Assembly (NCBI GenBank): GCA_030656195.1
Contig: JAUSOJ010000220.1
Coordinates: 14,133 to 78,132, forward strand
Direction of reading: 5' to 3'
Length of the DNA: 64,000 nucleotides
Source of the DNA: Lutibacter sp.
GTDB taxonomy: Bacteria > Bacteroidota > Bacteroidia > Flavobacteriales > Flavobacteriaceae
The notes beneath the pieces are model-generated. The model searched no databases, was not told where the DNA came from, and was given only the letters and a program-made list of their open reading frames with translations. Shown here in pieces: positions 3,789 through 49,226 of the stretch. The stretch's first letter is position 1. Each line of letters opens with the position of its first letter. The position numbers and the translations under genes were made by a program.

Positions 3789-4565
3789 AATAGGAGTTAT
3801 AAGTTATTGGTTGTAAAGTTAGAAGTTAACTTAGCGAACAATATTCTCCTATCTATTCTATATATTGTATAACTATCCCATTTGCAGTTATAAGGGGCTT
3901 GTTCTTGCCCAATATTTCTTTTAATATCTTGATGCCCTAACGAGGCGTTCACTTTGGCTGCGATACAAATAAATTTAAAATTCACAATCCAGGTTCCCTG
4001 AGAAAATTCGAATTACAATATTTATGCACCATTTTTCTTCTAAAAAATCTGAAAATCTCCAAATAAATTGATTGGTTGATTTTTGGCAATATTTGGGTCT
4101 ATTTTAACCATAAAATGCGTAAAACAACCCATTTTCAAACATTTGGTAAATTTTTTGCTTCTCAGCAAAAAACATAAAACCCGCTTTATTGCTGATAATT
4201 AATACATTATAGCCAAAAAAAACAACGACCCTAAATTTCAAAAAAATTCGGGAAGCTAAACAAAATTTTTTGTCTAAAACTAACATTTATCATAGATTTT
4301 GAATAATTTATCCATTCAACTCCATTTTACCCTTAAAAACTTGTTAATATAAGGTGAAAAGGGCCAAAAAAACAGTTAAAATTCGGTAAATTAATGGTGA
4401 TTTCAACAAATTAAAATACATTTTAAAAAATAAATCGCCAAAAATAATATGCTTAACTGCTTATTATATAATATTTTATAAAGAAACACCACAAAACACC
4501 ATCCTTTTATTATCAAAAATAACTGGTTTTGACAAATCATTATTGCATAATAAAAATTATATATG

Positions 4566-4573
4566 TAGATTTG
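4566..4573 (+). promoter_or_regulatory. Candidate -7 box TAGATTTG for the Ala-rich lipoprotein gene
   Basis: Exact TAnnTTTG match 74 nt upstream of the ATG at 4647, with an ATTG about 20 nt further upstream. The same TAGATTTG octamer recurs at 37822 and 53544. Confidence 0.35.
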
Positions 4574-4646
4574 TTAATAACTTATTAAAACAGTAAGTTT
4601 ATTGACCTATTTAAATTTCAAAGAATATTAATTAAAAAGTTACAAA

Positions 4647-7409
4647 ATGAAACATTTAAAAAAATTGTCGGTAGTCCTGATGATTACCACCTTGTTTAGT
4701 GTGAGCTTTACGTCTTGTATAGACAACGAAGTTTCCCCCCTAGTTGAAGCCATTTATGAGGCTCAAGCTGATTTAATTGCTGCACAAGCCGGTGTGCAAA
4801 ATGCTGAAGCCGCTTTATTGCTGGCGCAAGCCGCAAATCAACAAGCTAATTCAGCTTTGTTAGCGGCTCAAGCTGCAGCTGCCACCTCTATTGCTCAAGG
4901 CCAATTGGCAGTTTTACTTGCCAATGCAGGTTTAACGGATGCACAAGCACAAGCTGTATTAGCAGCTGCTGAAGGTAATTTAGCCCAAGCTTTGGCTGAT
5001 GCTGGTTTAACGGATGCTATAGCAGCTCAAATTTTAGCCGACATTGCTATTCAAGAAGCAAATGCTGAGTATACTGCTTCTGTGCGCCAACAAGAACTTT
5101 TAGTATTGGCCGCTCAAACTAGTCTAGATGTAGCTACATTACAAAATGATCTTGCCCTTGCACAGGTTAATTTCCAAACACAAATGGCCATTGCTATGGC
5201 CGCTATGGAAGCTGCAGGTGTTCAAATTGCGATTGGTTATGCTTGGGATTACGCATGGGCTATGCAACATGCAAACAACCTTATGTCACAATTATTAGGA
5301 GCGCAAGCTGATTTAGCCAATGCGCAATTAATGCAAACTGGTGGCGTTTCTTGGGAATTTTACTTAGCGCAATTGCAAGGTGCTGTTGCTACCAATATGG
5401 CCGCCAAAGCTGATTTACAAGCTGCGATCACTGCTATGGAAGCTTATATTGCAAACCCTTCTACTCCAGAAGCAATTGTTTCAGGATTAAAAGCCCAAAG
5501 TGCTATGTATGAAGCAGCAATTGACGCTAAAGAGGTTGAAATGCAAGTACAGTACAATAAAATTATGGCTCTTTATCAAGAAAATGGTGTGAGAAATGAA
5601 TTAGATGACAGAATTTTTGATTCTTTAGATGAACACAATTATGCTGTAAATGAGAAAAACGACCGATTAGATTGGATTGAAACTGCAGAAGATGATATTG
5701 CATTTTGGCAACTTGCAATTACCAATTACCCTGCTGCATTGGCTGCTTTACAGTTAACTAAAGACAACGCCACAACTGCAAAAAATGCTGCCCAAACTGC
5801 TTTTAATACTGCTTCTGCTACTCAAGCATCTGCCAACACCGCGCAAATTGCGGCTGCTGCTGCCTTAACCTTCCTTCAAGGTGAACTTGCACAATTATAT
5901 GCCTCATTACAAATTGCCGCAGGTGAATTGGCTACTGAACAAGCACTTTATAATGCTGGTATTGGCGTTGCTACAACTAATAACAATACTGCCATTGCCA
6001 ATGTAACAGCCGCTGGAGCTGCGCTTGCTGCCGCACAAGCGAACTATAATTTATGGAAAACCAGATTTGAAGGTAATGTGGGTGTTGATAATGTTATTAA
6101 TGGAGGTTGGTACTGGGAAGATACAACTTCACCTTCTACAGTTTTAGGTGATACTGTTTTAGGTATTCACACTAACGCTAATGGTGTTGCTTCAACTACT
6201 TATGTAAGAGTTGAATCTTGGACTTACAATGATATTGCTCCTGCTGGTGCTGGTCCTGAAGATACTTATACACCACTAACTATTGGTACTGCCCAACAAG
6301 TAACACTAGGTGCTGGTCAATTTCCTATAGCTGGTAATGGTGCTATTACTCAAGGGGAATATGTTACTACTTATCCTTTAGCTGGTTATACTTTAGCTTT
6401 CTATGTTGAAGTAGGATTAGATGACGTTGTTTACAATAACTTAACCCAATTGAATTTGGCTATTGCTGCATTGGGTGATGAGGATATCTTTGATGTTGCT
6501 CCTGTATTGGGTGCTACACCTAAAATAGGTACAGATGCTTACTCTGTTCTTTGGAATGCTATATTGGCTCAATTAGGGACTCAAGATTATTTAGATAATT
6601 TTGGTGATGATTTAGCAGATGCACAAGCAAATTATGATTACTGGAAAAACATTTATGAAAATGAGTTGGCTCTTTTAGATGCTGCACAAGCTGTTTTGGC
6701 AAGTGCAAACACTACTTTAGCCGCTGCCAATACCGCAAAAGCAAGTGCACAAACTACTTTAAATCTTGCGATTACTGCTGAAACGAATGCCATCAATGCT
6801 TTAAACGCTTTCTTAGCTACATCTATGGATGATTATCAAGACTGGATAGATGCTGCTATATTGGATATCGCTGCTTGGAACCAACAAATCGCAGCCATAC
6901 AACCTATCATTGACGCTAAATATGCCGTAGTAGCAGGTTTATTGGGTGAATTAACAGCAGCTGGTATTCAATACACATTTGTGGTAGAAGCTGACGGCAC
7001 AGGTACTTTGGTAATCACTAATTACGGTGTACTTTCTTCATTGTACCCAGATATTCACGCTGCAATCATTGCCGAATGGCAAGCATACTGGGTTATGGAA
7101 CAAGAGTTAACTGCTTTACAAAATTCTCTTGACTTAAATGAAGACTTGATATTTGCTTATGGGTCTGCTGATGATTTAGATGACTTGGCAGGATATTTAG
7201 CTATTTTAAAAGCTGATCTTGTAAATGCTATTTATGACATGGAAGTAGCGCTACAAGCTTTAGCTTCTGCTCAAGTTAATGCAAATGCTGCTACTGCATC
7301 TATTGCTTACTATCAAGCATTAATTGTAACATTACAACAAAGACATGCAAATACTTTAGCAATTGCTGCTAAATACAAAGCATTAATGGAAGCTGCATTA
7401 GCCTCTTAA
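4647..7409 (+). CDS. Ala/Gln-rich, highly acidic 920-aa surface lipoprotein of unknown function
   Basis: Signal peptide plus lipobox (LFSVSFTSC, Cys24). By hand count about 202 Ala (22 percent) and only about 22 Lys+Arg. Two long helical-looking low-complexity arms flank a Gly/Thr/Tyr-rich, beta-looking core (about aa 476-600). I recognise no catalytic motifs. Confidence 0.85.
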   Translation: MKHLKKLSVVLMITTLFSVSFTSCIDNEVSPLVEAIYEAQADLIAAQAGVQNAEAALLLAQAANQQANSALLAAQAAAATSIAQGQLAVLLANAGLTDAQAQAVLAAAEGNLAQALADAGLTDAIAAQILADIAIQEANAEYTASVRQQELLVLAAQTSLDVATLQNDLALAQVNFQTQMAIAMAAMEAAGVQIAIGYAWDYAWAMQHANNLMSQLLGAQADLANAQLMQTGGVSWEFYLAQLQGAVATNMAAKADLQAAITAMEAYIANPSTPEAIVSGLKAQSAMYEAAIDAKEVEMQVQYNKIMALYQENGVRNELDDRIFDSLDEHNYAVNEKNDRLDWIETAEDDIAFWQLAITNYPAALAALQLTKDNATTAKNAAQTAFNTASATQASANTAQIAAAAALTFLQGELAQLYASLQIAAGELATEQALYNAGIGVATTNNNTAIANVTAAGAALAAAQANYNLWKTRFEGNVGVDNVINGGWYWEDTTSPSTVLGDTVLGIHTNANGVASTTYVRVESWTYNDIAPAGAGPEDTYTPLTIGTAQQVTLGAGQFPIAGNGAITQGEYVTTYPLAGYTLAFYVEVGLDDVVYNNLTQLNLAIAALGDEDIFDVAPVLGATPKIGTDAYSVLWNAILAQLGTQDYLDNFGDDLADAQANYDYWKNIYENELALLDAAQAVLASANTTLAAANTAKASAQTTLNLAITAETNAINALNAFLATSMDDYQDWIDAAILDIAAWNQQIAAIQPIIDAKYAVVAGLLGELTAAGIQYTFVVEADGTGTLVITNYGVLSSLYPDIHAAIIAEWQAYWVMEQELTALQNSLDLNEDLIFAYGSADDLDDLAGYLAILKADLVNAIYDMEVALQALASAQVNANAATASIAYYQALIVTLQQRHANTLAIAAKYKALMEAALAS

Positions 7410-7428
7410 TTCTTTAAGAAAATTAACT

Positions 7429-7454
7429 AAAGGGCTGCCTCACAGCAGCCCTTT
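7429..7454 (+). terminator. Hairpin after the lipoprotein gene (weak or leaky terminator)
   Basis: GGGCTGC (7432-7438) pairs with GCAGCCC (7445-7451). Only three T follow, and there is no TAnnTTTG box before the next ATG at 7491. Confidence 0.5.
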
Positions 7455-7490
7455 AAAAACAAAATTTTAACTCTTAAAGAACTAAAACAT

Positions 7491-8321
7491 ATGAAAAAAT
7501 ATTTAATTTTATGCTTTATTTTAGTCTTTGCACTAACAAGTGCAAATGCACAGGATAAAGATTCACATCACCACCACTATAAAGGAGATACCTGCAAGGT
7601 TGAGCCAAGATTTGCTCCAAAGCAAGGTGACTTTACAGCGGCAATGGTTTTTGGACGAGGAGCATATCTAAATGGAGGTTTGGTTGTACCTAGTTCTTCT
7701 GCCACGATACCTAGTGTGGCGCCGTATGAAAACAGTGTAGACACTAATGACAACAGCATTACCAATATGGTTGGTGCAGAAGGAAGATATTACGCTTCAA
7801 ATAGATTCGCTATCACAATGAGTGGAGGCGCAATTTGGAGACATACGCCTTCACAACTTGCCATACCTGCTGTAATAGACGGAAACGGAAACACAATTAT
7901 TCCCGCTTACAATGCGGTTGTGGAAGATGAACGCATCGACGCAAGCTTTTCAGTAGGCGGACAATGGCTGTTCAATACCAAAAATGATCGTTTATTTCCT
8001 TATATAGGATTTGCGTTCCCTTTTGATTATGCAAGAAGATCAATGTTTGAACCAATCACAATTGATGCAAACGGAAATCTTGCTGTGAACGATTTAGGTG
8101 CACGCCACGTAGACATTACTGCTTTCGGAGTACAAGCGGTTGCGGGTGTTGATTATTATGTTGCTAAAGACGTGTTCTTTGGTTTTGATATCAAACCGGT
8201 AGCTTATACATACGCCGTAAGTATGAAAACGCCAGGCCCAGGATTATTTAACCTGGAATCTGACACAAATACATTATCATTTTTTGCTCAATTTTCTTTC
8301 AAACTTGGGTTCAAATTTTAA
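7491..8321 (+). CDS. Small outer-membrane beta-barrel protein with an N-terminal His4 tract
   Basis: Sec signal peptide (ALTSANA-QD). The mature N-terminus is QDKDSHHHHYKGD. Alternating hydrophobic strands run through the protein, and the C-terminal beta-signal ends FKLGFKF. Confidence 0.8.
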   Translation: MKKYLILCFILVFALTSANAQDKDSHHHHYKGDTCKVEPRFAPKQGDFTAAMVFGRGAYLNGGLVVPSSSATIPSVAPYENSVDTNDNSITNMVGAEGRYYASNRFAITMSGGAIWRHTPSQLAIPAVIDGNGNTIIPAYNAVVEDERIDASFSVGGQWLFNTKNDRLFPYIGFAFPFDYARRSMFEPITIDANGNLAVNDLGARHVDITAFGVQAVAGVDYYVAKDVFFGFDIKPVAYTYAVSMKTPGPGLFNLESDTNTLSFFAQFSFKLGFKF

Positions 8322-8349
8322 TTTGTAGGTTAATAAATTTGATAAGAAA

Positions 8350-8376
8350 GGGTTGCATTTGCAGCCCTTTTTTTAT
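8350..8376 (+). terminator. Rho-independent terminator
   Basis: GGGTTGC-attt-GCAGCCC stem (one G.U pair) followed by a T7 run. Confidence 0.8.
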
Positions 8377-8377
8377 A

Positions 8378-8440
8378 TGCTGAACTTGCCCGTGCTGAAC
8401 TTGCCTGTGCTGAACTTGCCTGTGCTGAACTTGTTTCAGC
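8378..8440. repeat. Tandem 15-bp repeat, about 4 units (tgctgaacttgcc[c/t]g)
   Basis: Units at 8378-8392, 8393-8407 and 8408-8422. A fourth unit ends in the REP-type hairpin gctgaa-cttgt-ttcagc. Confidence 0.85.
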
Positions 8441-37863: not shown

Positions 37864-40674
37864 ATGAGGTTCGCCAATAACATTAAATATTCCCTTTGTT
37901 TTCTGCTTGCGGTTTTAATATCTCAACATATAAATGCGCAATATGCCCATTACATAAATAATTATACACTTTATGAATACAAGGCGGGCAATCAAAATTG
38001 GGACATTGCAAAATCTGCCGACGGGAATTTATTTGTGGCGAATAACAACGGACTTCTGGAGTTTGACGGGTTAAACTGGAATTTATGGGAAATGCCGAAT
38101 AAAACCACCATTCGTTCATTGTTGGTTTATCAAAATAAAATTTACGTGGGCTCGTATGAGGAATTCGGTTATTTCTCAAGAAACAACAAAGGTGCTTTAA
38201 AATACACTTCCCTGCTAAGTGCCCACAAGAAAATAAACGTCTCTAAAGATGAAGAATATTGGCAAATAGTTTTGTTAGGCGATGCTGTGGTATTTCGGTC
38301 TTTTTTAAATATTCATATTTATAAAGACGGGAAAATTACCTCGCACAACTTGTCGGGCACCATTATGACTTGCGATGTTGTCTATGAAAAATTGTATGTC
38401 GCTACTTTAGACAACGGTATATTTGTGTTGGAAAATCAACAGTTAAAGCCTTTCTTTTATGCTGAAAAATTAAAAAATTCCAAGATTATTTCAGTCACAG
38501 CAAAAAACGATTCCCAGTTATTAATAAACACCGCTTTGGAGGGTTCCTTTTTGTTGGATAATAACATCCTAATTCCTTGGCAAACCGAGATCAATCAAAT
38601 TGTTAAAAAGCACCAGCTTAATAAATTTACACAACTGCCAAATGGGAATATGCTTTTTGGCACCATAAAAAATGGAATTTATATCACGGATAACTCCGGC
38701 AAAATCCTATTCAACATCAACAAAGAAACCGGACTTATAAACAATACTGTTTTGGGACAATTTGTTTCCGAAAACAATGAACTATGGCTGGGATTGGATA
38801 ACGGAATTGCCTTTGTTGATTTGAACACGCCCAATTATTTTTACAATGATATTTCTGGCAAGCTAGGTGCTGTTTATGATATCATCAGTTATAAAAACAC
38901 CATTTATATTGGCAGCAATACCGGTTTGTATTTTATTGATGCTGAAGGCAAATTACAATTTATTGAAGGTTCTCAAGGGCAGGTTTGGAACTTAAAAGAA
39001 TTAGACGGCGATTTGTTTTGCGGACATAATAATGGCACTTATTTGGTAAAAAACAACACCTTAAAACTTATTTCGGGCTATACCGGCGGCTGGGTAATCA
39101 ATAAAGTGCCGGAACAAAAAAATACCTATGTTCAGGGAACTTATGCCGGCTTGGTGAGCTTTAAAAAAATAAATGGTGAATGGCAGGTAAAACATTTGGG
39201 GAAAACCACCATCCCTGCACGATTTCTGGTTTTTGAAGATGAACAAACTGCTTGGATTTCGCACGCAAACAAGGGTTTGTACCGCGTTAAGTTTGATAAA
39301 AATTATGAGACAATTACTGAAATTAAAGATTACAATAAAAAAGGGCTCTGGTCCGATTATTTTGTGCGAATTTACAAACTCAAAAACACCATTGCTTTTC
39401 ACACCATAAAAGGCTGGCAAAATTATGAAACACTCATAGACAGCATTGTTCCCTACAATTTATTAAATGAAAAAATTGGCAAACAAGGATATATCATTTC
39501 CGAAGAAAACATTCCAGAAATTGCCTATAAAACAGAAAATTCCATCACTTTTGGTTCCTTTTTAAGTGAATCAGAAAACATTTTAATTCCGAATAAGTAC
39601 TTCAAAAAAAGACTTATAACCGGTTATGAAAATATTTCTAAAATTAACGATTCAACTTTTGCCCTTAATTTATATGATGGATTTATGTTTATTGATGCGG
39701 CCAAATTTTCAATAAAAGAAACCTTAAAAAAACCAATACTTGCTAAAATAATCATTAACAATCAAGCCATCGCGCTTGATACAACCGAAATTTCACTCCC
39801 ATTTCGAAACAATTCAATTGCCATATCCGTAAGTTCTCCGTTTTCCAAAGACCATAGTTTTGAGTATAACCTTTCAAGTCTGCATTTAAATCCGCCCTGG
39901 ACTGAATCTAAAAACGGTATAATAGAATTTTCAAATCTTTCTGACGGAACTTATCTTTTAACCATAAGAACCGTTGGTTACAACAAAGAAAAATCGCCTG
40001 TTTTATCTTTGGAATTTACCGTTTTATCACCTTGGTATAAAGGTACCACCGGATTTATTATTTATGCTTTTATATTTATTATTGCCGCTTTTGTCATTTA
40101 TCTTCTTTATAAAAAGAAGATAAGAAAAGAACAAAAGTTGCTTAAATTGATGTTTGAAGAAGCGCAGAAAAAATTATTGGAAGAACGTAAACAAGAAAGT
40201 GAAAAAGAAATTATTAGGCTAAAAAACGAATCCCTTAAAAATGAAATTAAACTCAAAAGCAAACAGCTGGCAAATACCGCAATGACTTTGGTTAAAAAAA
40301 ATGAAACATTGTTGCATTTAAAAGATGAATTGCTTTCCAATAAAAATAATTTTACCAATCAGTATTCCTTTAAAAAATTCATAAAACAAATAGACAATTC
40401 CATTGAACACGTTGATGGATGGGAACTTTTTGAATACAATTTCAATCAGGTTCATGAAGAGTTTTTTAAACAATTAAAAGCCAGCTTTCCAACTTTAACG
40501 CACAAAGATTTGAAAATTTGTGCCTATTTAAGAATGAATATGAGCAGCAAGGAAATTGCGCCACTGCTCAACATCTCCATTAGAGGTGTTGAAACAAACA
40601 GATATCGGCTAAAAATAAAACTCGGCATCTCAAAAGAAGGCAGTCTTCGCGGTTTTTTACAAAATTATAATTAA
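37864..40674 (+). CDS. Membrane-spanning one-component regulator: periplasmic beta-propeller repeats + Y_Y_Y domain + TM + coiled coil + LuxR-type HTH
   Basis: Signal or anchor at the N-terminus. Two-component-regulator-propeller-like repeats (LFVANNNGLLEFDG, IYVGSYEEFGYF). A TM segment near aa 735-755 (FIIYAFIFIIAAFVIYLLY). C-terminal HTH (LTHKDLKICAYLRMNMSSKEIAPLLNISIRGVETNRYRLKIKLG). No histidine kinase or receiver motifs. Confidence 0.85.
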   Translation: MRFANNIKYSLCFLLAVLISQHINAQYAHYINNYTLYEYKAGNQNWDIAKSADGNLFVANNNGLLEFDGLNWNLWEMPNKTTIRSLLVYQNKIYVGSYEEFGYFSRNNKGALKYTSLLSAHKKINVSKDEEYWQIVLLGDAVVFRSFLNIHIYKDGKITSHNLSGTIMTCDVVYEKLYVATLDNGIFVLENQQLKPFFYAEKLKNSKIISVTAKNDSQLLINTALEGSFLLDNNILIPWQTEINQIVKKHQLNKFTQLPNGNMLFGTIKNGIYITDNSGKILFNINKETGLINNTVLGQFVSENNELWLGLDNGIAFVDLNTPNYFYNDISGKLGAVYDIISYKNTIYIGSNTGLYFIDAEGKLQFIEGSQGQVWNLKELDGDLFCGHNNGTYLVKNNTLKLISGYTGGWVINKVPEQKNTYVQGTYAGLVSFKKINGEWQVKHLGKTTIPARFLVFEDEQTAWISHANKGLYRVKFDKNYETITEIKDYNKKGLWSDYFVRIYKLKNTIAFHTIKGWQNYETLIDSIVPYNLLNEKIGKQGYIISEENIPEIAYKTENSITFGSFLSESENILIPNKYFKKRLITGYENISKINDSTFALNLYDGFMFIDAAKFSIKETLKKPILAKIIINNQAIALDTTEISLPFRNNSIAISVSSPFSKDHSFEYNLSSLHLNPPWTESKNGIIEFSNLSDGTYLLTIRTVGYNKEKSPVLSLEFTVLSPWYKGTTGFIIYAFIFIIAAFVIYLLYKKKIRKEQKLLKLMFEEAQKKLLEERKQESEKEIIRLKNESLKNEIKLKSKQLANTAMTLVKKNETLLHLKDELLSNKNNFTNQYSFKKFIKQIDNSIEHVDGWELFEYNFNQVHEEFFKQLKASFPTLTHKDLKICAYLRMNMSSKEIAPLLNISIRGVETNRYRLKIKLGISKEGSLRGFLQNYN

Positions 40675-40903
40675 AATAACTGCATTTTCTAGTCATTTTA
40701 GTAAAACAAAACTACGTCATTACTACTTCATTTATCATATTTGCTCGGCTATTTGCTATAAAAAATAATCTGTTTTGTAATACGCCTTTCAGAAAAAATC
40801 ACTTTTTAAATTAATGTGGCGTAACTAAGGCGTATGCATATTGTATTGAAAAGGCCAAAAACCCAGTAACTTTAACAATTACTTAACATTAAATTTATTT
40901 TAA

Positions 40904-43894
40904 ATGAAAACAAAAATAATTTACGCCTTATTATTCCTTCCTTTCTTAATTTTTGCTCAGGAAAGAACTGTTTCAGGTAAAGTTACTTCATCAGATGGAG
41001 TACCTATTCCTTCGGTAAATGTTTTAATAAAAAACACCGCCCGAGGAGTTGTGACTGATTTTGACGGAAATTTCAGTATTGCAGCCAGCCAAAATGAAGT
41101 GTTGGTATTCAGCTATATTGGGATGAAACCTAAAGAAATTGTGGTAGGAACGGCTAACATTATTAATGTTGTGCTTGAAGATAGCGCAGAAAGTTTAGAA
41201 GAAGTTGTTGTTATTGGATACGGAACACAGAAAAAAGCAATCCTTACCAGCTCTGTGAGTTCAATTAAGGGGGAAGAACTTTCAAAAGAACCGGTAACCA
41301 ATGCGGCGCAAGCATTACAAGGAAAGGCTGCCGGAATTCAGATAATTGCCTCAGACGCGCCTGGATCGGCTTCAACAGTGATAATAAGAGGGTTGGGAAC
41401 AATACAAGGAGGGCGAGATCCTTTGTATGTTGTTGATGGGATCTTAACCAACAACATCAATAATATCAACACCTCCGACATTCTAACGATGAATGTTTTA
41501 AAAGATGCCGCTTCATTAGCCATTTATGGTAATAGAGGCGCGAATGGCGTAATTATCATTACCACCAAAAAAGGACGTTCAGGAAAAATGCAAATATCCT
41601 TTGATTCTTATACAGGAATTAAAGATATTTTAAGCACCGTTAAAATGGCTGATGCTGCATCTTATGTAATTTATAGCAATGAAGCCATCCAAAGAGATTT
41701 AAGAAGAGATGATGACCCAAGCAATGATAATAATACAAGCGGGTTTTTTCCAAGCAACCAACAATACAATACCAATTGGTTGGATGCTATCACAAGAATA
41801 GGCCGTGTAACAAATCACAATTTGTCCTTATCTGGCGGTTCTGATAACATCACAGCCTTTTTTAGTGTAGGATACAATAATGAAGAAGGGATCTTAAAAG
41901 ACAATGATTTTGATAGGCTTACCTTACGTAGCAACGTGGATTATAAAATAAGCGATAAATTAAATTTTGGTCATAATGTTAGTGTTCAATTGGCAAATGT
42001 AACTCCAAAAGGCTATAGTGCATTTACAAATGCTTATAAGCAAGCACCAATTGTTCCTGTAAGGGATGAACAAGGAAGATTTGGTTCCTCAACAGCATTT
42101 AATAATGTAGGGAATCCTGTAAAAGATTTACATTTTCAAGACGAAAAACAAAAATACTTTAAAATTCAAGCTTCATTTAAAGCAGATTATAAAATCATAG
42201 AACCGTTAACATTTACCTCTCGTTTTTCTGTAGAAACTGAAAATGGACGGATGTATAATTTTCAGGACAGATTAGGATCTTTCTTAGCCAACGACCCTGG
42301 AAATATAGAAGATAATTTTGAAAAGGATAATGAAAATCCGGCAAAAACAAGACTTAGTGTAACCCATACCAATAATTATCGCTGGTTTCTAGACAATTAT
42401 GTTACTTATAATAAAACGTTTCTTGAAGACCATACCATAAATGCCACTTTAGGGATAACTGCGGAAGAAAACAGAAGTGAATTTTTAACAGGGACAAGAA
42501 ATAATGTACCTTTAAATTCAAACCTAAAATACAATTTAAGTATTGGTGATGAAGACAATACACAACTCTCCGGAGGGTCAATTAGTGTTATGGACAGGTT
42601 ATATTCCTATATCGCAAGGGTAAATTATGATTTTCAGGATAAATACCTTTTTAACGCCTCTTTCAGAAGGGATGGTTCCAGTAAATTTCAACAAGGAAAT
42701 AAATTTGGTAATTTCTTCGCAGTAAGCGCAGGATGGGTTTTAACAGAAGAAACTTTTATGCAAGATGGCATATTTAATAAATTAAAACTAAGAGCAAGTT
42801 ACGGAGAATTGGGGAATCAAAACGTTCCTTTTAATATTGTAACAGCAACAACAGGCAGTGGCGGATTCTATCCGTTTGGCCCTAACCAAGATTTACAACA
42901 AGGAATTACTATAACTGGAACTGTTGAAGAAGATTTAACCTGGGAAACAACCAATGAAATAAATTTAGGGGTTGAGTATACCTTGCTTGATAATAAATTA
43001 AGCGGTGAAATTGATTATTACAAAAGAGTAAACAGCAATGCGGTTTTAGAAATAAAGCTCCCTGATGTTTTTGGTTTCGACCCTTATAATTCGCACGTTG
43101 GTGAAGTTACAAATCAAGGTGTGGAAGTGCTTTTAAATTGGACCGATAAAATAAATGATCATTTAAAATATTATATAGGCGGTAATTTTTCCTACAATAA
43201 AAATGAGTTGACCAAAGTAACCAACCCTTTCTTTAATGAACAACGGGGAGGGAATATTGATAACGGACAGTACACTAAAAAAATTGCTGTAGGCCAACCT
43301 TTGGGCAGTTTCTTTTTATATGAAGTAATAGGAATTGATGACAGGGGAGAATTTGTTTATGACGATGTAAATGATAATGGCATTACAGATGAAGGAGACA
43401 GAAAATTCTTTGGGTCGTACATTCCAAAATATTACTTTGGTTTCAACTTTGGGCTTGAATACAATAATTTTGATTTTTCTGTTGATACTTACGGAAATTT
43501 TGGAAATAAGGTTTATAACGGTAAAAAAGCACAACGTTTTTCAAATGAAAACATTGAGCAATCTACTTTTAACAACCGATGGACTTCCGGAGGACCAAGC
43601 AATACAGGCCCAATTGCCTTTAATGACGTGCCTTTATCTTCTGATTATTATTTAGAATCTGGAGATTTTTTTAGAATCAACAATATTACTTTAGGTTACA
43701 CATTACCCGAAAATGTTTTAAAGCTTTTTTCTAAAATAAGAGTCTATGCCTCGGCAAAGAATCCATTGATTATAAAGAGCTTTTCAGGTTACACTCCTGA
43801 ATTGTCAGGAGCTCCTTTAGGCACCGCCGGTATTGAGTTGAATGCATATCCAACCTTGCAATCATATTTTATAGGAATAAACACATCATTTTAA
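40904..43894 (+). CDS. susC: SusC/RagA-family TonB-dependent outer-membrane transporter
   Basis: 996 aa. N-terminal carboxypeptidase-regulatory-like domain (VSGKVTSSDGVPIPSVNVLIKNT), plug (VVVIGYGTQKK), and a C-terminal barrel ending in F. Followed by a susD-like gene. Confidence 0.92.
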   Translation: MKTKIIYALLFLPFLIFAQERTVSGKVTSSDGVPIPSVNVLIKNTARGVVTDFDGNFSIAASQNEVLVFSYIGMKPKEIVVGTANIINVVLEDSAESLEEVVVIGYGTQKKAILTSSVSSIKGEELSKEPVTNAAQALQGKAAGIQIIASDAPGSASTVIIRGLGTIQGGRDPLYVVDGILTNNINNINTSDILTMNVLKDAASLAIYGNRGANGVIIITTKKGRSGKMQISFDSYTGIKDILSTVKMADAASYVIYSNEAIQRDLRRDDDPSNDNNTSGFFPSNQQYNTNWLDAITRIGRVTNHNLSLSGGSDNITAFFSVGYNNEEGILKDNDFDRLTLRSNVDYKISDKLNFGHNVSVQLANVTPKGYSAFTNAYKQAPIVPVRDEQGRFGSSTAFNNVGNPVKDLHFQDEKQKYFKIQASFKADYKIIEPLTFTSRFSVETENGRMYNFQDRLGSFLANDPGNIEDNFEKDNENPAKTRLSVTHTNNYRWFLDNYVTYNKTFLEDHTINATLGITAEENRSEFLTGTRNNVPLNSNLKYNLSIGDEDNTQLSGGSISVMDRLYSYIARVNYDFQDKYLFNASFRRDGSSKFQQGNKFGNFFAVSAGWVLTEETFMQDGIFNKLKLRASYGELGNQNVPFNIVTATTGSGGFYPFGPNQDLQQGITITGTVEEDLTWETTNEINLGVEYTLLDNKLSGEIDYYKRVNSNAVLEIKLPDVFGFDPYNSHVGEVTNQGVEVLLNWTDKINDHLKYYIGGNFSYNKNELTKVTNPFFNEQRGGNIDNGQYTKKIAVGQPLGSFFLYEVIGIDDRGEFVYDDVNDNGITDEGDRKFFGSYIPKYYFGFNFGLEYNNFDFSVDTYGNFGNKVYNGKKAQRFSNENIEQSTFNNRWTSGGPSNTGPIAFNDVPLSSDYYLESGDFFRINNITLGYTLPENVLKLFSKIRVYASAKNPLIIKSFSGYTPELSGAPLGTAGIELNAYPTLQSYFIGINTSF

Positions 43895-43907
43895 ATAACA
43901 TAGAGAG

Positions 43908-45350
43908 ATGAAAAATTTAATTAAAAATACTATTCGCATTAAAGTTTCACTGATTGTGTTTCTATTGCTCATTATTTCCTGCAGTGAAGATTTTATCAAT
44001 GTTGAAGCCAATCAGGAAACAGAAGAAGCATTGACTGCAGACAAAGCACCTGAACTTGTAAACGCAGTGTATAACAGCTTTTTGACGTGGCAAATGAGCT
44101 CATTTTCTTGGAATGGAGTCACAAGTATAACTTCTGATGATGCCGATAAAGGAAGTACCCCAGGTGATACAGGAACAGACAAAAATTTATTGGATGCACT
44201 TGCTTTTGACGCATCCACCATCTCTTTTGCTGAAGTTTGGAGTGCACATTATGCAGGTATTCAAAGAGCAAATCAGGCCATCAATAGGTTGCAGGGATTT
44301 GAAATGGAAGATGGCTTAAAAAACAGGTTGATTGGCGAAGCAAAATTCTTAAGAGCACTAATGTATTTTAGATTGGTTCAGTCATTTGGAGGCGTGCCAT
44401 TAATAACGGAAGCTCCAGATCCACAAGCGGAAAATGCAAGCGATGTGCTTAAAAGAGCAACAAAGGAAGCTTCTTATGCTTTAATTGAAAAAGACTTGCA
44501 AGAAGCCATCCCTGTGCTGTTGAATAAGAACCAATATAATGCAGCCGATTTAGGCCGGGTTACAAAAGGAGCTGCGAAGGCTTTATTGGCAAAAGTGAGT
44601 ATGTACCAAAATAAATGGCCAGAAGTATATAGTTTAACAAATGAAATAATAGCCTCTGGAGAATATGGACTCACCACTAATTATGAGGATATCTGGAAAG
44701 AAATTGGAGAAAACAATACAGAATCTATTTTTGAAATACAATCTAGAGGAGAAACGCCAACTGCAGGAGTTCAAGGGTATAGCGCAACTCAAGGAGCTCG
44801 TGGTACAGGTGGCTGGGGCTGGGGTTTTAATACGCCAACGCAAAACCTTGCAAATTCTTATGAAGCAAATGATTTAAGACGGGATGCCACTATTATGTTT
44901 AGGGGAGAAATTTTATTTGATGGCCGATTAGTGCCTAATGATGCTGATAATGAAAGATACAATCAAAAAGCTTATTCTAGTGCTTTTTCTGATGCTTGGG
45001 AAACTGGAAAAAACATACGAATTCTTCGCTATGCTGAAGTGTTGTTAATGAATGCAGAAGCTGCTTTAAAACAAGGTGGTGATGCCGCAACACCATTGAA
45101 CAGAGTAAGAAACAGAGCCGGATTAGGAAATGCGCCTGTGGTTAATCAACAGGCTGTTTGGAATGAAAGAAGATTTGAATTGGCTTTTGAACATGATCGT
45201 TATTTTGATTTAGTGCGACAAGGAAGAGCCGGTACAGTACTTAGAGCCCATGGAAAACCTTTTGTTGATGGCAAGCACGAAGTATTCCCAATTCCTCAAG
45301 AACAAATTGATAAAAGTGGTGGAATTCTTGTACAAAATCCAGGATATTAA
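43908..45350 (+). CDS. susD: SusD/RagB-family nutrient-binding lipoprotein
   Basis: Lipobox LIISC. TPR-like helical core (RALMYFRLVQSFGGVPL) and a SusD-typical C-terminus (ERRFELAFEHDRYFDL...PIP). Confidence 0.92.
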   Translation: MKNLIKNTIRIKVSLIVFLLLIISCSEDFINVEANQETEEALTADKAPELVNAVYNSFLTWQMSSFSWNGVTSITSDDADKGSTPGDTGTDKNLLDALAFDASTISFAEVWSAHYAGIQRANQAINRLQGFEMEDGLKNRLIGEAKFLRALMYFRLVQSFGGVPLITEAPDPQAENASDVLKRATKEASYALIEKDLQEAIPVLLNKNQYNAADLGRVTKGAAKALLAKVSMYQNKWPEVYSLTNEIIASGEYGLTTNYEDIWKEIGENNTESIFEIQSRGETPTAGVQGYSATQGARGTGGWGWGFNTPTQNLANSYEANDLRRDATIMFRGEILFDGRLVPNDADNERYNQKAYSSAFSDAWETGKNIRILRYAEVLLMNAEAALKQGGDAATPLNRVRNRAGLGNAPVVNQQAVWNERRFELAFEHDRYFDLVRQGRAGTVLRAHGKPFVDGKHEVFPIPQEQIDKSGGILVQNPGY

Positions 45351-45422
45351 TAATTTATTGTAATGATCAAATGCATTTAAGGATTCCTTCTTTGCATGAT
45401 AATGAAACATTAAACTTTATAA

Positions 45423-46790
45423 ATGACTTATTTAAAAAATAGCATGTATTTACTTAATCCATATTTTTTGGCATTGTTAATAATGCTTAACAGTTGTGGT
45501 GGCGGAAACGATATTACGCCGCCTCCTCCAGATGTTGATCCTATTGTGAAGGAACTTTCCGACACCGAGTTGATGGATTTGGTGCAAAAAAATACCTTCA
45601 AGTATTTCTGGGATTTTGCACATCCTGTGAGCGGTTTGGCTTTGGAACGTTCAAATTTAGAAGCTTATGGCGGTGAAGCTGCCAACATTGTCACCACCGG
45701 CGGAAGCGGTTTTGGGGTTATGGCCATTGTTGTGGGCGTTGAAAGAAACTATATTACCAGAGATCAGGCCATAGAGCGTTTGCACAAAATAACGGATTTT
45801 CTGTTAAAAGCCGACCGTTTTCACGGCGCTTTTCCGCATTGGTATTATGGGGACACGGGAAAAGTAAGACCTTTTTTCTCAACGGATAACGGCGGAGATA
45901 TTGTTGAAACTTCCTTTTTAATTCAGGGTTTGTTAACCGCACGCCAGTATTTTAACAAAGACAATGCGCTAGAAAATTCACTTCGCACAAAAATCAACAA
46001 ACTGTGGAATGAAGTGGAATGGGATTGGTACACCAACAACAAAGATGTATTGACCTGGCACTGGTCCCCAAATTTTGGCTGGGCCATAAATCATGAATTA
46101 AAAGGCTATAATGAAGCACTTATTACCTATGTGCTGGCTGCCTCATCAACAAGCCATCCCATCAATAAATCTGTTTATCATAATGGCTGGACTTCAGGCA
46201 ATGATTTCGCCAACGGAAATGTATATTATCAGAAATGGAAACTAAAATTAGGTCCTGAATTGGGTGGCCCGTTATTTTTTGCGCATTATTCCTTTTTAGG
46301 ATTGGATCCAAGAAATTTAGTGGATAAATACGCAAATTATTGGGAACAAAATGTGAATCACACGCTAATCAACAGAGAGTATTGCATTAAAAATCCGAAG
46401 CAATTTATTGGATACAGCGCAGTAAACTGGGGATTGACGGCAAGTGACCATAAAAATGGGTATTCCGCACACAGTCCAACCAACGATTTAGGCGTTATTA
46501 CCCCAACGGCGGCATTGTCGTCATTTCCTTATACGCCAGAATATTCTATGCAGGCAATGCGAAATTTTTATTACAATTTCAATGGAAAGTTATGGGGAAA
46601 ATATGGTTTTTACGACGCTTTTAACCAAACGGAAAATTGGTACGCCACCAATTATTTAGCAATCGACCAAGGCCCGATTATTATTATGATTGAAAACCAC
46701 CGCACCGGATTGCTATGGAATTTGTTTATGTCGAGCCCGGAAGTGAAGGAAGGATTAAAAAAACTGGAGTTTACAAGTCCGCATTTTTAA
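45423..46790 (+). CDS. Lipoprotein glycoside hydrolase candidate, GH144-like (DUF3131 / 'glucoamylase family', endo-beta-1,2-glucanase family)
   Basis: Lipobox MLNSCGG. An (alpha/alpha)6-like sequence with FKYFWDFAHPVSGLALERSN and GGSGFGVMAIVVG. The family assignment is from memory of that family's conserved N-terminal region and is not verified. Confidence 0.55.
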   Translation: MTYLKNSMYLLNPYFLALLIMLNSCGGGNDITPPPPDVDPIVKELSDTELMDLVQKNTFKYFWDFAHPVSGLALERSNLEAYGGEAANIVTTGGSGFGVMAIVVGVERNYITRDQAIERLHKITDFLLKADRFHGAFPHWYYGDTGKVRPFFSTDNGGDIVETSFLIQGLLTARQYFNKDNALENSLRTKINKLWNEVEWDWYTNNKDVLTWHWSPNFGWAINHELKGYNEALITYVLAASSTSHPINKSVYHNGWTSGNDFANGNVYYQKWKLKLGPELGGPLFFAHYSFLGLDPRNLVDKYANYWEQNVNHTLINREYCIKNPKQFIGYSAVNWGLTASDHKNGYSAHSPTNDLGVITPTAALSSFPYTPEYSMQAMRNFYYNFNGKLWGKYGFYDAFNQTENWYATNYLAIDQGPIIIMIENHRTGLLWNLFMSSPEVKEGLKKLEFTSPHF

Positions 46791-46887
46791 TAAAAAAAAA
46801 CGAGCGACTTAATTCGCTAAAATAAAACGGATGCTGAAAAATGATTATTTTTTATCAAATTAATTCAGCTTAAAAATTTAAAATAAC

Positions 46888-49161
46888 ATGAAAATTAAAC
46901 AATTTATCATTCCCTTTTTCATCATCCTGTTTGGCTTTTCAAGCTGTACAGAAAAGACTACCGTTGCCAAAAAAGATTTAAGCAGCACTGATGAAACTAA
47001 ATTTGATGCCAAAATGGAATCATTTTTAGACAGTTTGACCAAAATTATGACCCTTGAAGAAAAAATTGGTCAGTTGACGCTTATGTCCACCGATTGGGAA
47101 CAAACTGGGCCAACCATCAATGAAAATTATAAAAATTTAATCAAAGAAGGAAAAGTTGGCAATATTTTCAATGCCTATTCCGTAAAATTTACCAGAGAAT
47201 TACAACAGCTCGCCGTAGAAAATACACGTCTTAAAATTCCTTTGTTGTTTGGCTATGATGTTATTCACGGACATCGCACTATATTTCCAATTTCCTTGGG
47301 CGAATCCGCCAGTTGGGATCTAAAAGCAATTGAAAACGGCGCACGTATTGCGGCTACGGAAGCTTCCGCAGAAGGTGTTCATTGGACTTTTGCGCCCATG
47401 GTTGATATTTCTAGAGATGCGCGTTGGGGAAGGGTTTCAGAAGGATCGGGAGAAGATGTTTATTTGGGTTCAGAAATAGCGAAAGCTAGAGTTAGAGGTT
47501 TCCAGGGAGACGATTTATTCGCCACAAACACCATTTTAGCTTGCGCAAAGCATTATGCCGCTTATGGCGCACCAATTGCCGGAAGGGATTACAATACGGT
47601 TGACATGTCTGAAAGAGAGTTAAGAACCACGTATTTACCGCCTTTTAAAGCGGCTGTTGATGCTGGAGTTACCACATTTATGACTGCTTTTAACGATGTA
47701 AGTGGCGTGCCTGCAAGTGGAAGCAAATATTTGCTGACGGATATTTTAAGGGAAGAATGGGGGTTTGAAGGATTTGTGGTCACCGACTATACGTCTATCA
47801 ATGAATTGGTTCCTCACGGCGTTGCAAAAGACAACAAACAAGCTGCAGAAATCGCCATCAATGCCGGTGTGGATATGGATATGCAAGGCGGCTCTTATTT
47901 GGATCATTTAAAAGAACTTATTGCCGACGGAAAAGTGACCGAGAAACAGGTAACATCCGCCGCAAGAAAAATTTTAGCGTTAAAATATAAACTGGGATTG
48001 TTTTCAGATCCTTACAGATACTGCGATGAAACCAGGGAAAAGGAATTGCTGATGACTCCAGAACACCTTGAGGCCGCGAGAGATATGGCGAGAAAATCGG
48101 CTGTATTATTAAAAAACAGCAACCAAACGCTTCCGCTTTCCAAAGATAAAAAAATTGCGTTGATAGGTCCTTTGGCCAATGACAAATACAATATTATCGG
48201 GTCTTGGACGGCAGCCGGCGATCGTTATACAAAACCGATTACCGTTTTGGAAGGCTTCAAAGAAAAAATTTCAAATCAGGCCAACTTAATGTTTACACAG
48301 GGATGCGAAATTAATTCAGACAACACCTCCGATTTTCAAAATGCGATAAACATCGCCAAAAAAGCGGATGTTGTGGTGATGGTTATGGGAGAATCCGAAG
48401 GATTGTCGGGTGAAGCCGCAAGCAGAACGAATCTTGATTTGCCAGGAAATCAAAAAGAATTGTTGAAAGCCATCAAAAAATTAGGCAAACCTATTGTATT
48501 GGTTTTAATGAACGGAAGGCCTTTAACCCTTGAATGGGAAAATGAAAATATGGATGCCATTTTAGAAACTTGGTTCCCCGGAACAATGGGTGGTTACGCC
48601 ATTGCCGATTTAATTTTTGGCGATGCAAACCCTTCAGGTAAGTTAACCATGACCTTTCCAAGAAATGTTGGGCAAATTCCTATTTATTACAATGTAAAAA
48701 ATACAGGAAGACCTTATGAAGCAGATGGTCCTGAACAAAGATACCGTTCAAGATACCTTGATGTTGCCAATTCTCCGCTTTATCCTTTTGGCTATGGGTT
48801 GAGTTACACCACTTTTAAATATTCAAATTTCGCCATTGACAAAAAAACCTATGCATTTAAAGAGAAAATTAACATTAGCGTTACGGTCAAAAATACCGGC
48901 TCTTTTAAAGGCGAAGAAGTGGTTCAACTATATATGAGGGATATGGTAGCGAGTGTTACGCTGCCTTTAAAAGAACTTAAACGTTTTGAAAAAGTGATGC
49001 TGGAACCCAATGAATCCAAAAAAATAACCTTCACGCTAACTTCTGATGATCTTGCATTTTACACACAAGATATGAGTTTTAAAGCTGAAGCAGGTGAATT
49101 TAAACTTTTTGTGGGAACCAATAGTGAAGAGTTGCTTGAAACAAATTTCACGCTGAAATAA
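46888..49161 (+). CDS. bglX: GH3 beta-glucosidase (BglX-like), lipoprotein
   Basis: Lipobox GFSSC. GH3 motifs (KHYAAYG and GFVVTDY, the latter with the nucleophile Asp). C-terminal alpha/beta sandwich and FnIII-like domain. Confidence 0.9.
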   Translation: MKIKQFIIPFFIILFGFSSCTEKTTVAKKDLSSTDETKFDAKMESFLDSLTKIMTLEEKIGQLTLMSTDWEQTGPTINENYKNLIKEGKVGNIFNAYSVKFTRELQQLAVENTRLKIPLLFGYDVIHGHRTIFPISLGESASWDLKAIENGARIAATEASAEGVHWTFAPMVDISRDARWGRVSEGSGEDVYLGSEIAKARVRGFQGDDLFATNTILACAKHYAAYGAPIAGRDYNTVDMSERELRTTYLPPFKAAVDAGVTTFMTAFNDVSGVPASGSKYLLTDILREEWGFEGFVVTDYTSINELVPHGVAKDNKQAAEIAINAGVDMDMQGGSYLDHLKELIADGKVTEKQVTSAARKILALKYKLGLFSDPYRYCDETREKELLMTPEHLEAARDMARKSAVLLKNSNQTLPLSKDKKIALIGPLANDKYNIIGSWTAAGDRYTKPITVLEGFKEKISNQANLMFTQGCEINSDNTSDFQNAINIAKKADVVVMVMGESEGLSGEAASRTNLDLPGNQKELLKAIKKLGKPIVLVLMNGRPLTLEWENENMDAILETWFPGTMGGYAIADLIFGDANPSGKLTMTFPRNVGQIPIYYNVKNTGRPYEADGPEQRYRSRYLDVANSPLYPFGYGLSYTTFKYSNFAIDKKTYAFKEKINISVTVKNTGSFKGEEVVQLYMRDMVASVTLPLKELKRFEKVMLEPNESKKITFTLTSDDLAFYTQDMSFKAEAGEFKLFVGTNSEELLETNFTLK

Positions 49162-49226
49162 AATTAATAAATAATTGAAATCAAATCCAAAAATAGCAGT
49201 TTTAACGATAACAAAAACCGAATTTT

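Follow-up and report, generated by a model that had tools for sequence, protein, structure and literature searches.

A candidate flavobacterial counterpart of the Bacteroides BT1927/BT1926 surface-layer locus in Lutibacter, with a structured RNA element between its two genes

A lipoprotein-barrel gene pair of the BT1927/BT1926 type

A 64-kb stretch of Lutibacter sp. DNA (64,000 nucleotides, positions 14,133 to 78,132 of contig JAUSOJ010000220.1; hereafter the window) carries on its + strand a gene for a 920-aa lipoprotein (4647-7409) followed by a gene for a 276-aa outer-membrane beta-barrel (7491-8321). With a probability of roughly 0.6, we read this pair as encoding a constitutive, surface-exposed, barrel-anchored coat, a flavobacterial form of the BT1927/BT1926 type in which the conserved ends of the lipoprotein would serve for docking, its Ala-rich helices would make a stalk, and its variable domain would be the tip. 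The kind is known from Bacteroides; what is new here is that the pair is flavobacterial, is not phase-variable, is depleted in Lys and Arg, has a lipoprotein body not detectably related in sequence to that of Bt1927, lacks a third gene, and has an RNA element between its genes. BT1927/BT1926 of B. thetaiotaomicron is a phase-variable surface-layer (S-layer) locus that exists together with seven paralogous loci (Taketani 2015, PMC4611039; Porter 2020, bioRxiv 521070; Silale 2025, PMC12578637). Bt1927 has an adjacent barrel, is located at the surface, and forms a lattice by electron microscopy (EM) (PMC4611039; PMC12578637); a tessellated EM layer and protection against phage and complement are known only for Bt1927 (PMC4611039; bioRxiv 521070; PMC12578637). 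Homology to that protein suggests that a surface layer would form in Lutibacter as well.

The barrel has a signal peptide (aa 1-20) and a C-terminal ...GFKF, and aligns to 190/195 model positions of Pfam PF16961 (OmpA_like) with 70.4 bits (cut-off 26.6; E 2.3e-19); its Pfam matches are limited to PF16961 and PF13505. The BT1927 quantitative PCR primer (PMC12548429), used as an exact probe against species-representative genomes, retrieved a Bacteroides faecis MAJ27 locus consisting of a tyrosine recombinase, a 940-aa lipoprotein, and a 288-aa barrel. By BLASTP, the window barrel is 28% identical to this Bt1926 ortholog over 262 aa (E 2e-27), and the ortholog itself belongs to PF16961 (65.1 bits). 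At the level of sequence, membership of the window barrel in the BT1926 family is established. Homologues within Lutibacter are 70-90% identical to it and bear the NCBI name "BT1926 family outer membrane beta-barrel protein", and no Bacteroides member was among the 120 matches listed in a widened search. A profile search of the PDB with the barrel returned one weak match, the 8-stranded Opa60 (E 0.25). Directly after its signal peptide, the protein reads QDKDSHHHH; the His4 tract and the terminal Phe to which the original prediction, made from the nucleotide sequence alone, had drawn attention are thus both present, but the tract is not kept in homologues and has no conserved significance.

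The lipoprotein provides a second, less extensive link. The signal peptide, the lipobox, and an N-terminal module (aa 24-62) are encoded at 4647-4832 (+). Cys24 (4716-4718), the lone Cys of the protein, lies in F-T-S-C, and the module begins C-I-D-N-E-V-S-P-L-V-E-A-I-Y-E-A-Q-A-D-L-I-A-A-Q-A... The B. faecis Bt1927 ortholog has F-T-G-C23-I-D-T-D-E where the window protein has F-T-S-C24-I-D-N-E, and its C23-I24-D25 followed by T26 fits the published start of Bt1927 peptides at T26. When a profile of Lutibacter N-termini is aligned with mature Bt1927, the two match over residues 1-43 without any shift relative to the Cys, with 35% identity and a P of 1.3e-4 to 6e-3 depending on target length; for the controls (30 shuffles, the reverse of the sequence, and segments from inside Bt1927), E was never below 0.16. 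In addition, residues 1-150 of mature Bt1927 match the intermediates P0296, Polaribacter P0257, and P0272 at E 1e-6 to 1e-5, with matches running ~90-140 residues from the Cys, and the best composition-matched shuffle reached E 1.3. The signal is modest but well apart from the controls, and it argues that the N-terminal modules of the two lipoproteins are homologous. Two other bridges to Bt1927 were discarded, one from an earlier iterative search because its matches were inflated by signal peptides, and a 99% profile-profile match because its seeds were already members of the family found with the Lutibacter profile, making the comparison circular.

Several further features are held in common. 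The gene order is the same, a ~100-kDa lipoprotein and then a small PF16961 barrel, with homologous barrels; both lipoproteins have an F-T-(S/G)-C lipobox, a C-I-D-x-acidic motif, and the N-terminal module; both are Ala-rich (22% in the window protein and 17% in Bt1927); neither the window protein nor the Bt1927 ortholog has a Pfam match; and the intergenic region ahead of either locus is long and AT-rich (858 bp in the window and 887 bp in Bacteroides). The resemblance to BT1927/BT1926 that the original prediction had named was therefore largely right, in that the barrels are homologous (PF16961, E 2e-27) and the lipoproteins have an N-terminal module in common; direct comparison bore it out for the barrel and the lipoprotein N-terminus, but not for the lipoprotein body. 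Its label "uncharacterised" was half right: nothing in Pfam, NCBIfam, or the PDB matches the lipoprotein, but the label overlooks BT1927/BT1926, a characterised relative.

Linkage of the two genes

The pairing of the two genes is not peculiar to the window. L. profundi has a syntenic locus (lipoprotein, barrel, Tex, and MetRS) in which the lipoprotein is 38% and the barrel 71% identical to those of the window, and the pair also occurs in Salinimicrobium, Polaribacter litorisediminis, and one Bacteroidota metagenome-assembled genome (MAG). The Salinimicrobium partner matches the lipoprotein family profile over its mature sequence at E 3.5e-10. Scanning metagenomes with an alignment of the barrel yielded 67 loci, 53 of which had enough upstream DNA to be informative; in 52/53 of these, a partner matching the lipoprotein profile lies immediately upstream of the barrel on the same strand (best decoy 0.019), and every complete partner is a lipoprotein with C-[IV]-[DEK]-x-x-V-[SA]-[PD]-E-V. 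The lipoprotein and barrel genes are almost invariably linked, as the original prediction of a dedicated cassette had supposed, both in the metagenomic loci and in the named genera.

It is unlikely that the barrel is mainly an export or release partner rather than an anchor, with the lipoprotein largely shed to the medium or into outer-membrane vesicles. Taketani et al. did propose a two-partner-secretion-like role, and Bt1927 was present in culture supernatant (PMC4611039); the strict gene pairing would also fit. However, the mature window barrel is a 256-aa PF16961 protein without POTRA or Omp85 features, the predicted 8 strands of Bt1926 would be too narrow for a 90-kDa protein (PMC12578637), surface lipoproteins of Bacteroidota use a general signal-dependent export pathway (PMC5080379), and later work treats Bt1926 as a putative anchor (PMC12578637). 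Two-partner secretion proper (TpsA/TpsB), which calls for a 16-stranded Omp85-type transporter with POTRA domains and for a TPS domain in the cargo, was rejected: the 276-aa barrel matches PF16961 and PF13505 only, and the cargo has no Pfam domain. We propose that the barrel is the membrane anchor of the lipoprotein.

Composition and family of the lipoprotein

The lipoprotein is rich in Ala, Gln, Asn, and Thr. Over its 920 aa, there are 202 Ala (22%), 97 Asp plus Glu (D+E), and only 25 Lys plus Arg (K+R; 18 K and 7 R, or 2.7%); because three of the 25 fall in the signal peptide, the mature protein has 22. Scarcity of K+R extends across the family (median 2.9%, range 1.8-5.8%). Searches of Pfam, NCBIfam, and PDB sequences with the 920-aa protein gave no match. 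About 100 close homologues were found, nearly all from Lutibacter and none annotated, and an exhaustive profile search with the family yielded representatives of 592 clusters, with E <= 1e-30 for 113 of them; Polaribacter and uncultured Bacteroidota are among the sources. A second copy of either gene was not found within the 64-kb window, whereas B. thetaiotaomicron has eight paralogous loci.

Most of what the original prediction had taken directly from the sequence was reproduced: the coordinates and strand of both open reading frames (ORFs), the lipobox at Cys24, the counts of 202 Ala and 22 mature K+R, and the codon preferences, with Ala encoded by GCT 104, GCA 51, GCC 34, and GCG 13 times (77% GCT or GCA) and Gln by CAA 64 and CAG 3 times (96% CAA). 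The distance to the downstream barrel gene is 81 nt (7410-7490) rather than the 82 given there, and a supposedly high local GC content was not upheld, the values of 0.37-0.43 being not notably above those of neighbouring genes. The recurring motifs are each where they had been placed, with AQANYNLWK at aa 463 and AQANYDYWK at aa 659, DWIETAEDDIAFW at aa 342 and DWIDAAILDIAAW at aa 732, and AGLTDA at aa 94 and 119, but the internal duplication that they had been taken to suggest was not supported, as local alignments of one arm against the other score only z = 2.9-3.9 above shuffles. Simple duplication was rejected on this ground and on the order of the motifs, which is mirrored about the beta domain (DWI...AQANY, beta domain, AQANY...DWI) and not tandem. 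The AGLTDA repeat lies in a lineage-specific insertion (aa 81-120; 4887-5006, +) that only ~1/4 of family members have (alignment occupancy 0.24).

Conserved ends and a hypervariable middle

Variation is distributed very unevenly along the lipoprotein. Across the family, residues 1-40 are 82% identical to the window protein, and residues T22, S23, C24, I25, V29, P31, V33, I36, Y37, Q40, and A41, among others, are invariant in the alignment. Elsewhere, identity is 23-56%, with the exception of the C-terminal helix (aa 881-920; 7287-7406, +), which at 65% is second only to the N-terminus and in which L896, A905, A907, A912, L913, M914, A917, and L918 are near-invariant. The beta-rich domain between the helical arms (aa 476-600; 6072-6446, +), with strands at 488-597, is only 23-30% identical across the family and varies in length from 136 to 264 aa. 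Among the closest relatives, the ratio of nonsynonymous to synonymous substitution rates (dN/dS) is ~0.40 for the lipoprotein as a whole, only 0.02-0.14 in residues 1-62 but 0.55-1.10 in the beta domain, and 0.09-0.24 for the barrel. With respect to the nearest relative, dS rises from 0.16 at the lipoprotein N-terminus to 0.95 in the beta domain and is 0.26 in the adjacent barrel; this mosaic dS points to exchange of the middle of the lipoprotein gene by recombination. The lipoprotein therefore has conserved ends and a hypervariable mosaic middle, the beta domain above all. Bt1927 resembles it in being conserved N-terminally and divergent elsewhere; among the Bacteroides orthologs, conservation is 75-100% over the first ~48 aa and 31-43% over the remainder (PMC4611039).

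We propose that the N-terminal module is both a surface-export signal and a segment that docks to the barrel, and that the beta-rich domain is the distal exposed tip. The acidic residues after the lipobox Cys, at +3 and +5, are placed as in published surface-export signals, which have been defined for Bacteroidota lipoproteins (PMC5080379). The pattern of variation also bears on a quite different arrangement, in which the lipoprotein would face the periplasm as a tether or spacer of the envelope and the barrel would be its outer-membrane partner. Long coiled-coil lipoproteins, such as Lpp, can span the periplasm, and the motif following Cys24 is imperfect relative to the published export consensus (PMC5080379). 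Nonetheless, we hold this arrangement to be very improbable, since the motif is essentially that of Bt1927, which is experimentally surface-exposed; hypervariability, a near-neutral dN/dS at the tip, and mosaic dS typify exposed proteins; and evolution is slow in the barrel but fast in its partner.

Flagellin (FliC) offers an evolutionary analogy, and only that, having conserved terminal assembly helices, a hypervariable, exposed, recombining middle, and very high expression. There is no relation in sequence or fold, and FliC is a secreted filament subunit, whereas the window protein is a putative barrel-anchored lipoprotein.

Predicted structure of the lipoprotein

An AlphaFold2 (AF2) model of the lipoprotein, built with 51 homologues, has a mean predicted local distance difference test score (pLDDT) of 75.6 and a predicted template-modelling score (pTM) of 0.39. 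It consists nearly entirely of long helices, with single ones of 105 and 142 residues, together with a beta-rich domain at 488-597 and a small hairpin at 776-790, and so agrees with the long helices and compact core that had been foreseen from the sequence; residues 94-122, at the AGLTDA repeat, have a pLDDT below 50. The helices have a periodicity of ~3.5. Structure searching identified no fold homologue: Foldseek with the whole model returned only generic antiparallel coiled coils, the best being the enterococcal PrgA and SMC/MukB arms, at a template-modelling (TM) score of ~0.1. These have in common with the model an antiparallel coiled-coil stalk with a globular domain at its far end, and PrgA is a cell-surface protein, but the resemblance is architectural only because the TM score is ~0.1 and identity is 9-12%. 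The beta domain modelled separately reached a pLDDT of 77.6 and had no fold match in the PDB (best E 1.3) or BFVD (best E 0.32).

A coat need not be a lattice. The lipoprotein might instead form a surface-exposed, barrel-anchored brush of long acidic fibrils acting as an adhesin, as an anti-fouling or anti-grazing coat, or as a phage decoy; we hold this, the chief alternative, to be less likely. The body of Bt1927 that forms the lattice has no detectable homology here, lengths that vary from 800 to 1100 aa (136-264 aa in the beta region) are hard to fit to one lattice geometry, and the closest architectural analogue found by Foldseek is PrgA, an enterococcal stalk protein and not an S-layer protein. 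However, S-layer proteins generally diverge very fast and yet retain their lattices, and the very strong codon bias of the gene implies abundance at the level of a coat. The sole characterised member of the module type, moreover, forms a lattice (PMC4611039; PMC12578637).

Expression signals and absence of phase variation

The lipoprotein gene is preceded by a promoter and 5' untranslated region (UTR) block (4515-4646, +) with a Bacteroidota-type -7 box, TAGATTTG, at 4566-4573, ~75 nt before the ATG. The position of the TAnnTTTG motif is -81 in the window and -80 in L. profundi, and the 5' UTR would be ~80 nt long. The block is 81-84% identical in DNA to that of distant Lutibacter loci whose encoded lipoproteins are 38-50% identical, which suggests a functional leader, perhaps one concerned with mRNA stability or translation. 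The effective number of codons of the lipoprotein gene, 36.2, is the lowest of the 45 window ORFs (38.9-60.8 for the others), and GCT makes up 51% of its Ala codons, as against 21% elsewhere; the original suggestion of a native, highly expressed gene agrees with this. The operon is closed by an intrinsic terminator (8344-8374, +), a 13-bp stem and then T7, which folds at -17.8 kcal/mol (z -4.35) and is followed by UUUUUUU; the next gene, Tex, is convergent. Immediately past the terminator, still ahead of the convergent Tex gene, 3.7 tandem copies of a 15-nt repeat, TGCTGAACTTGCCTG, occupy 8378-8433 (97% matches).

No well-matched pair of inverted repeats was found around the lipoprotein promoter, and a tyrosine recombinase is absent from the window flanks and from the L. 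profundi, Salinimicrobium, Polaribacter, and Bacteroidota MAG loci. Phase variation was rejected for the window locus because it has neither convincing inverted repeats nor a recombinase, and expression of the lipoprotein is probably constitutive, unlike that of the eight phase-variable Bacteroides loci. The window thus differs from BT1927/BT1926 in having no tyrosine recombinase or invertible promoter, in its housekeeping flanks, and in its synteny between species. It differs too in what follows the barrel: the Bacteroides locus has a third gene there (L004 7310-7900), encoding a DUF4369 lipoprotein, the BT1925 ortholog, whereas neither the window nor any other flavobacterial-type locus that was examined has an equivalent of it.

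An RNA element between the two genes

The 81-nt spacer between the genes holds a structured element (7410-7490, +) in which a 9-bp outer stem (7411-7419 with 7472-7480) encloses a GC-rich hairpin (7428-7455) composed of the stem TAAAGGGCTGC/GCAGCCCTTTA and the loop CTCACA. The spacer has a minimum free energy of -25.3 kcal/mol (z -7.5). Spacers equivalent to it are present in L001, L002, L005, and L007-L073, and a perfect hairpin of at least 8 bp occurs in 58/67 spacer loci where 0.32 would be expected from shuffles, although the stems themselves are wholly different between lineages (e.g., GGGCTGC, GACTGGAG, GGTGGCGCG, and GGCAGCGCGC). Pairing in the outer stem reaches 95.8% over 40 sequences, compared with 25-69% when the partner column is slid, and at one of its positions the pair is A-U in 23, G-U in 10, and G-C in 7 sequences and is never unpaired. 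The 64-kb window has a single copy of the element, where 0.02 would be expected, and each related locus likewise has one; a generic genome-wide repeat was rejected on the basis of the single occurrence in the window. There was no significant match in Rfam 15, the best scores being 26.5 against 100, 26.3 against 229, and 23.6 against 80 bits. In a distant Bacteroidota MAG (L006 6870-7325), the spacer is 456 nt long through three copies of a ~60-nt repeat (ATGTCATTTCGA...GATTGAGAAATCTA), which sit between the hairpin and the 3' arm, the outer arms being kept at both ends. The element is absent from the B. faecis locus, in which the spacer is 26 nt long and has no hairpin.

Its register to the two reading frames is constant. 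In 52 non-redundant loci, the 5' arm starts 1-8 nt (median 4) past the lipoprotein stop codon, and the 3' arm stops 8-14 nt (median 11) ahead of the barrel ATG. Because the 5' arm follows the stop codon so closely, a ribosome terminating on the lipoprotein gene would cover it, and we infer from the sequences that translation of the barrel would be coupled to that of the lipoprotein through the outer stem. The inner hairpin, which mostly lacks a U-tract across loci, may be a transcript stabiliser or a partial terminator. Structure-mediated translational coupling and intercistronic stabilising hairpins are both established general mechanisms in operons. As in the former, the stem joins the region after the stop of the upstream gene to the initiation region of the next; as in the latter, a stable hairpin follows a gene for what would be an abundant structural protein. 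The present element differs from known coupling elements in matching no Rfam family and in being restricted to the lipoprotein-barrel pair.

Evidence weighing against a barrel-anchored coat

A number of observations count against the coat that we favour, or against parts of it. No relation of the lipoprotein to Bt1927 beyond ~43-100 N-terminal residues was detected by BLASTP, hhalign, or phmmer, and a search with full-length mature Bt1927 gave nothing above reversed decoys. The two proteins also differ markedly in composition, K+R being 2.7% in the window protein and 12.5% in the Bt1927 ortholog. The motif after Cys24 does not match the published consensus exactly, as the +2 residue is hydrophobic and the acidic residues are not adjacent. 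The AF2 model is only moderately confident, it is an assumption that the chain folds back as a hairpin with its termini close together, and the heptad signal is significant in some helices only. With regard to the RNA element, 8/9 outer-stem pairs are conserved in sequence and are therefore uninformative on covariation, so that a single pair covaries, and coupling is a candidate mechanism. Finally, literature searches turned up no account of an S-layer in Lutibacter or Flavobacteriaceae and nothing relevant on Lutibacter proteomics, and the Lutibacter or flavobacterial coat is a prediction from gene sequences.

A more ambitious statement must be more tentative: that marine Flavobacteriia such as Lutibacter, Polaribacter, and Salinimicrobium, a class for which no layer of this sort is known to have been described, make a constitutive, hypervariable, K/R-depleted, S-layer-like coat on the BT1927/BT1926 principle, and that its stoichiometry with the anchor is set by an undescribed RNA switch (an outer stem that the terminating ribosome opens, enclosing a stabilising hairpin) conserved across hundreds of divergent loci through compensatory change. 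We regard this as conceivable but doubtful.

Genomic neighbourhood

The window neighbours of the cassette include a prolyl oligopeptidase, a DEAD-box helicase, Tex, and an extracytoplasmic function (ECF) sigma factor; the flanking genes are housekeeping genes. At the L. profundi locus (L002 3367-4245), a DDE transposase gene lies directly upstream, where the window has the DEAD-box helicase and an 858-nt non-coding gap. In the AT-rich gap beyond Tex, an 86-nt tandem repeat (10716-10896) has 2.1 copies with 92% matches. The ECF sigma factor (12785-13354, -) is part of a group at 10975-13354. Neither of the two proteins encoded after it has a Pfam match: the first (247 aa) is probably an anti-sigma factor, and the second (351 aa) is secreted, its N-terminal half being helical and rich in Lys and Glu and its C-terminal half beta-strand-like. 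Farther along is a polysaccharide-utilisation locus (37864-51203) encoding a 936-aa protein with no Pfam match, SusC-like and SusD-like proteins, a PF10091 glucoamylase-like protein, GH3, and CBM4_9; a hybrid sensor kinase is on the opposite strand after it.

Proposed mechanism and implications

For a barrel-anchored coat, we envisage the following sequence of events. The lipoprotein would be lipidated at Cys24, and its C-I-D-N-E motif would then send it to the cell surface, where the conserved N-terminal segment, probably together with the C-terminal helix returning to the base of an antiparallel stalk, would dock to the barrel. The Ala-rich, heptad-like helices would make a stalk tens of nm long with the variable beta domain directed outward, and many copies would constitute a dense, strongly acidic, Lys/Arg-poor coat that is S-layer-like, whether crystalline or not. 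Such a coat would shield the outer membrane against phages, predators, and proteases, and its exposure would drive the fast divergence and recombinational replacement of the lipoprotein middle, as in flagellin. By opening the outer stem, the terminating ribosome would tie synthesis of the barrel to that of the lipoprotein.

Work on the BT1927/BT1926 module has so far been confined to gut Bacteroides, where it provides a phase-variable defence from phage and complement. Here, the same two-part design is met in free-living marine Flavobacteriia, where it is chromosomal, syntenic, apparently always on, and fast diversifying. The near-absence of Lys and Arg is a constraint on the whole family, for which protease resistance, surface charge, and salt adaptation are candidate causes. 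The 592 clusters are natural variants with which the parts that would dock to the barrel (the conserved ends) may be separated from those that would face the environment (the variable tip), and the spacer RNA offers a testable hypothesis of how a pair of partner proteins might be expressed in a coupled way in Bacteroidota, which lack Shine-Dalgarno-driven initiation.

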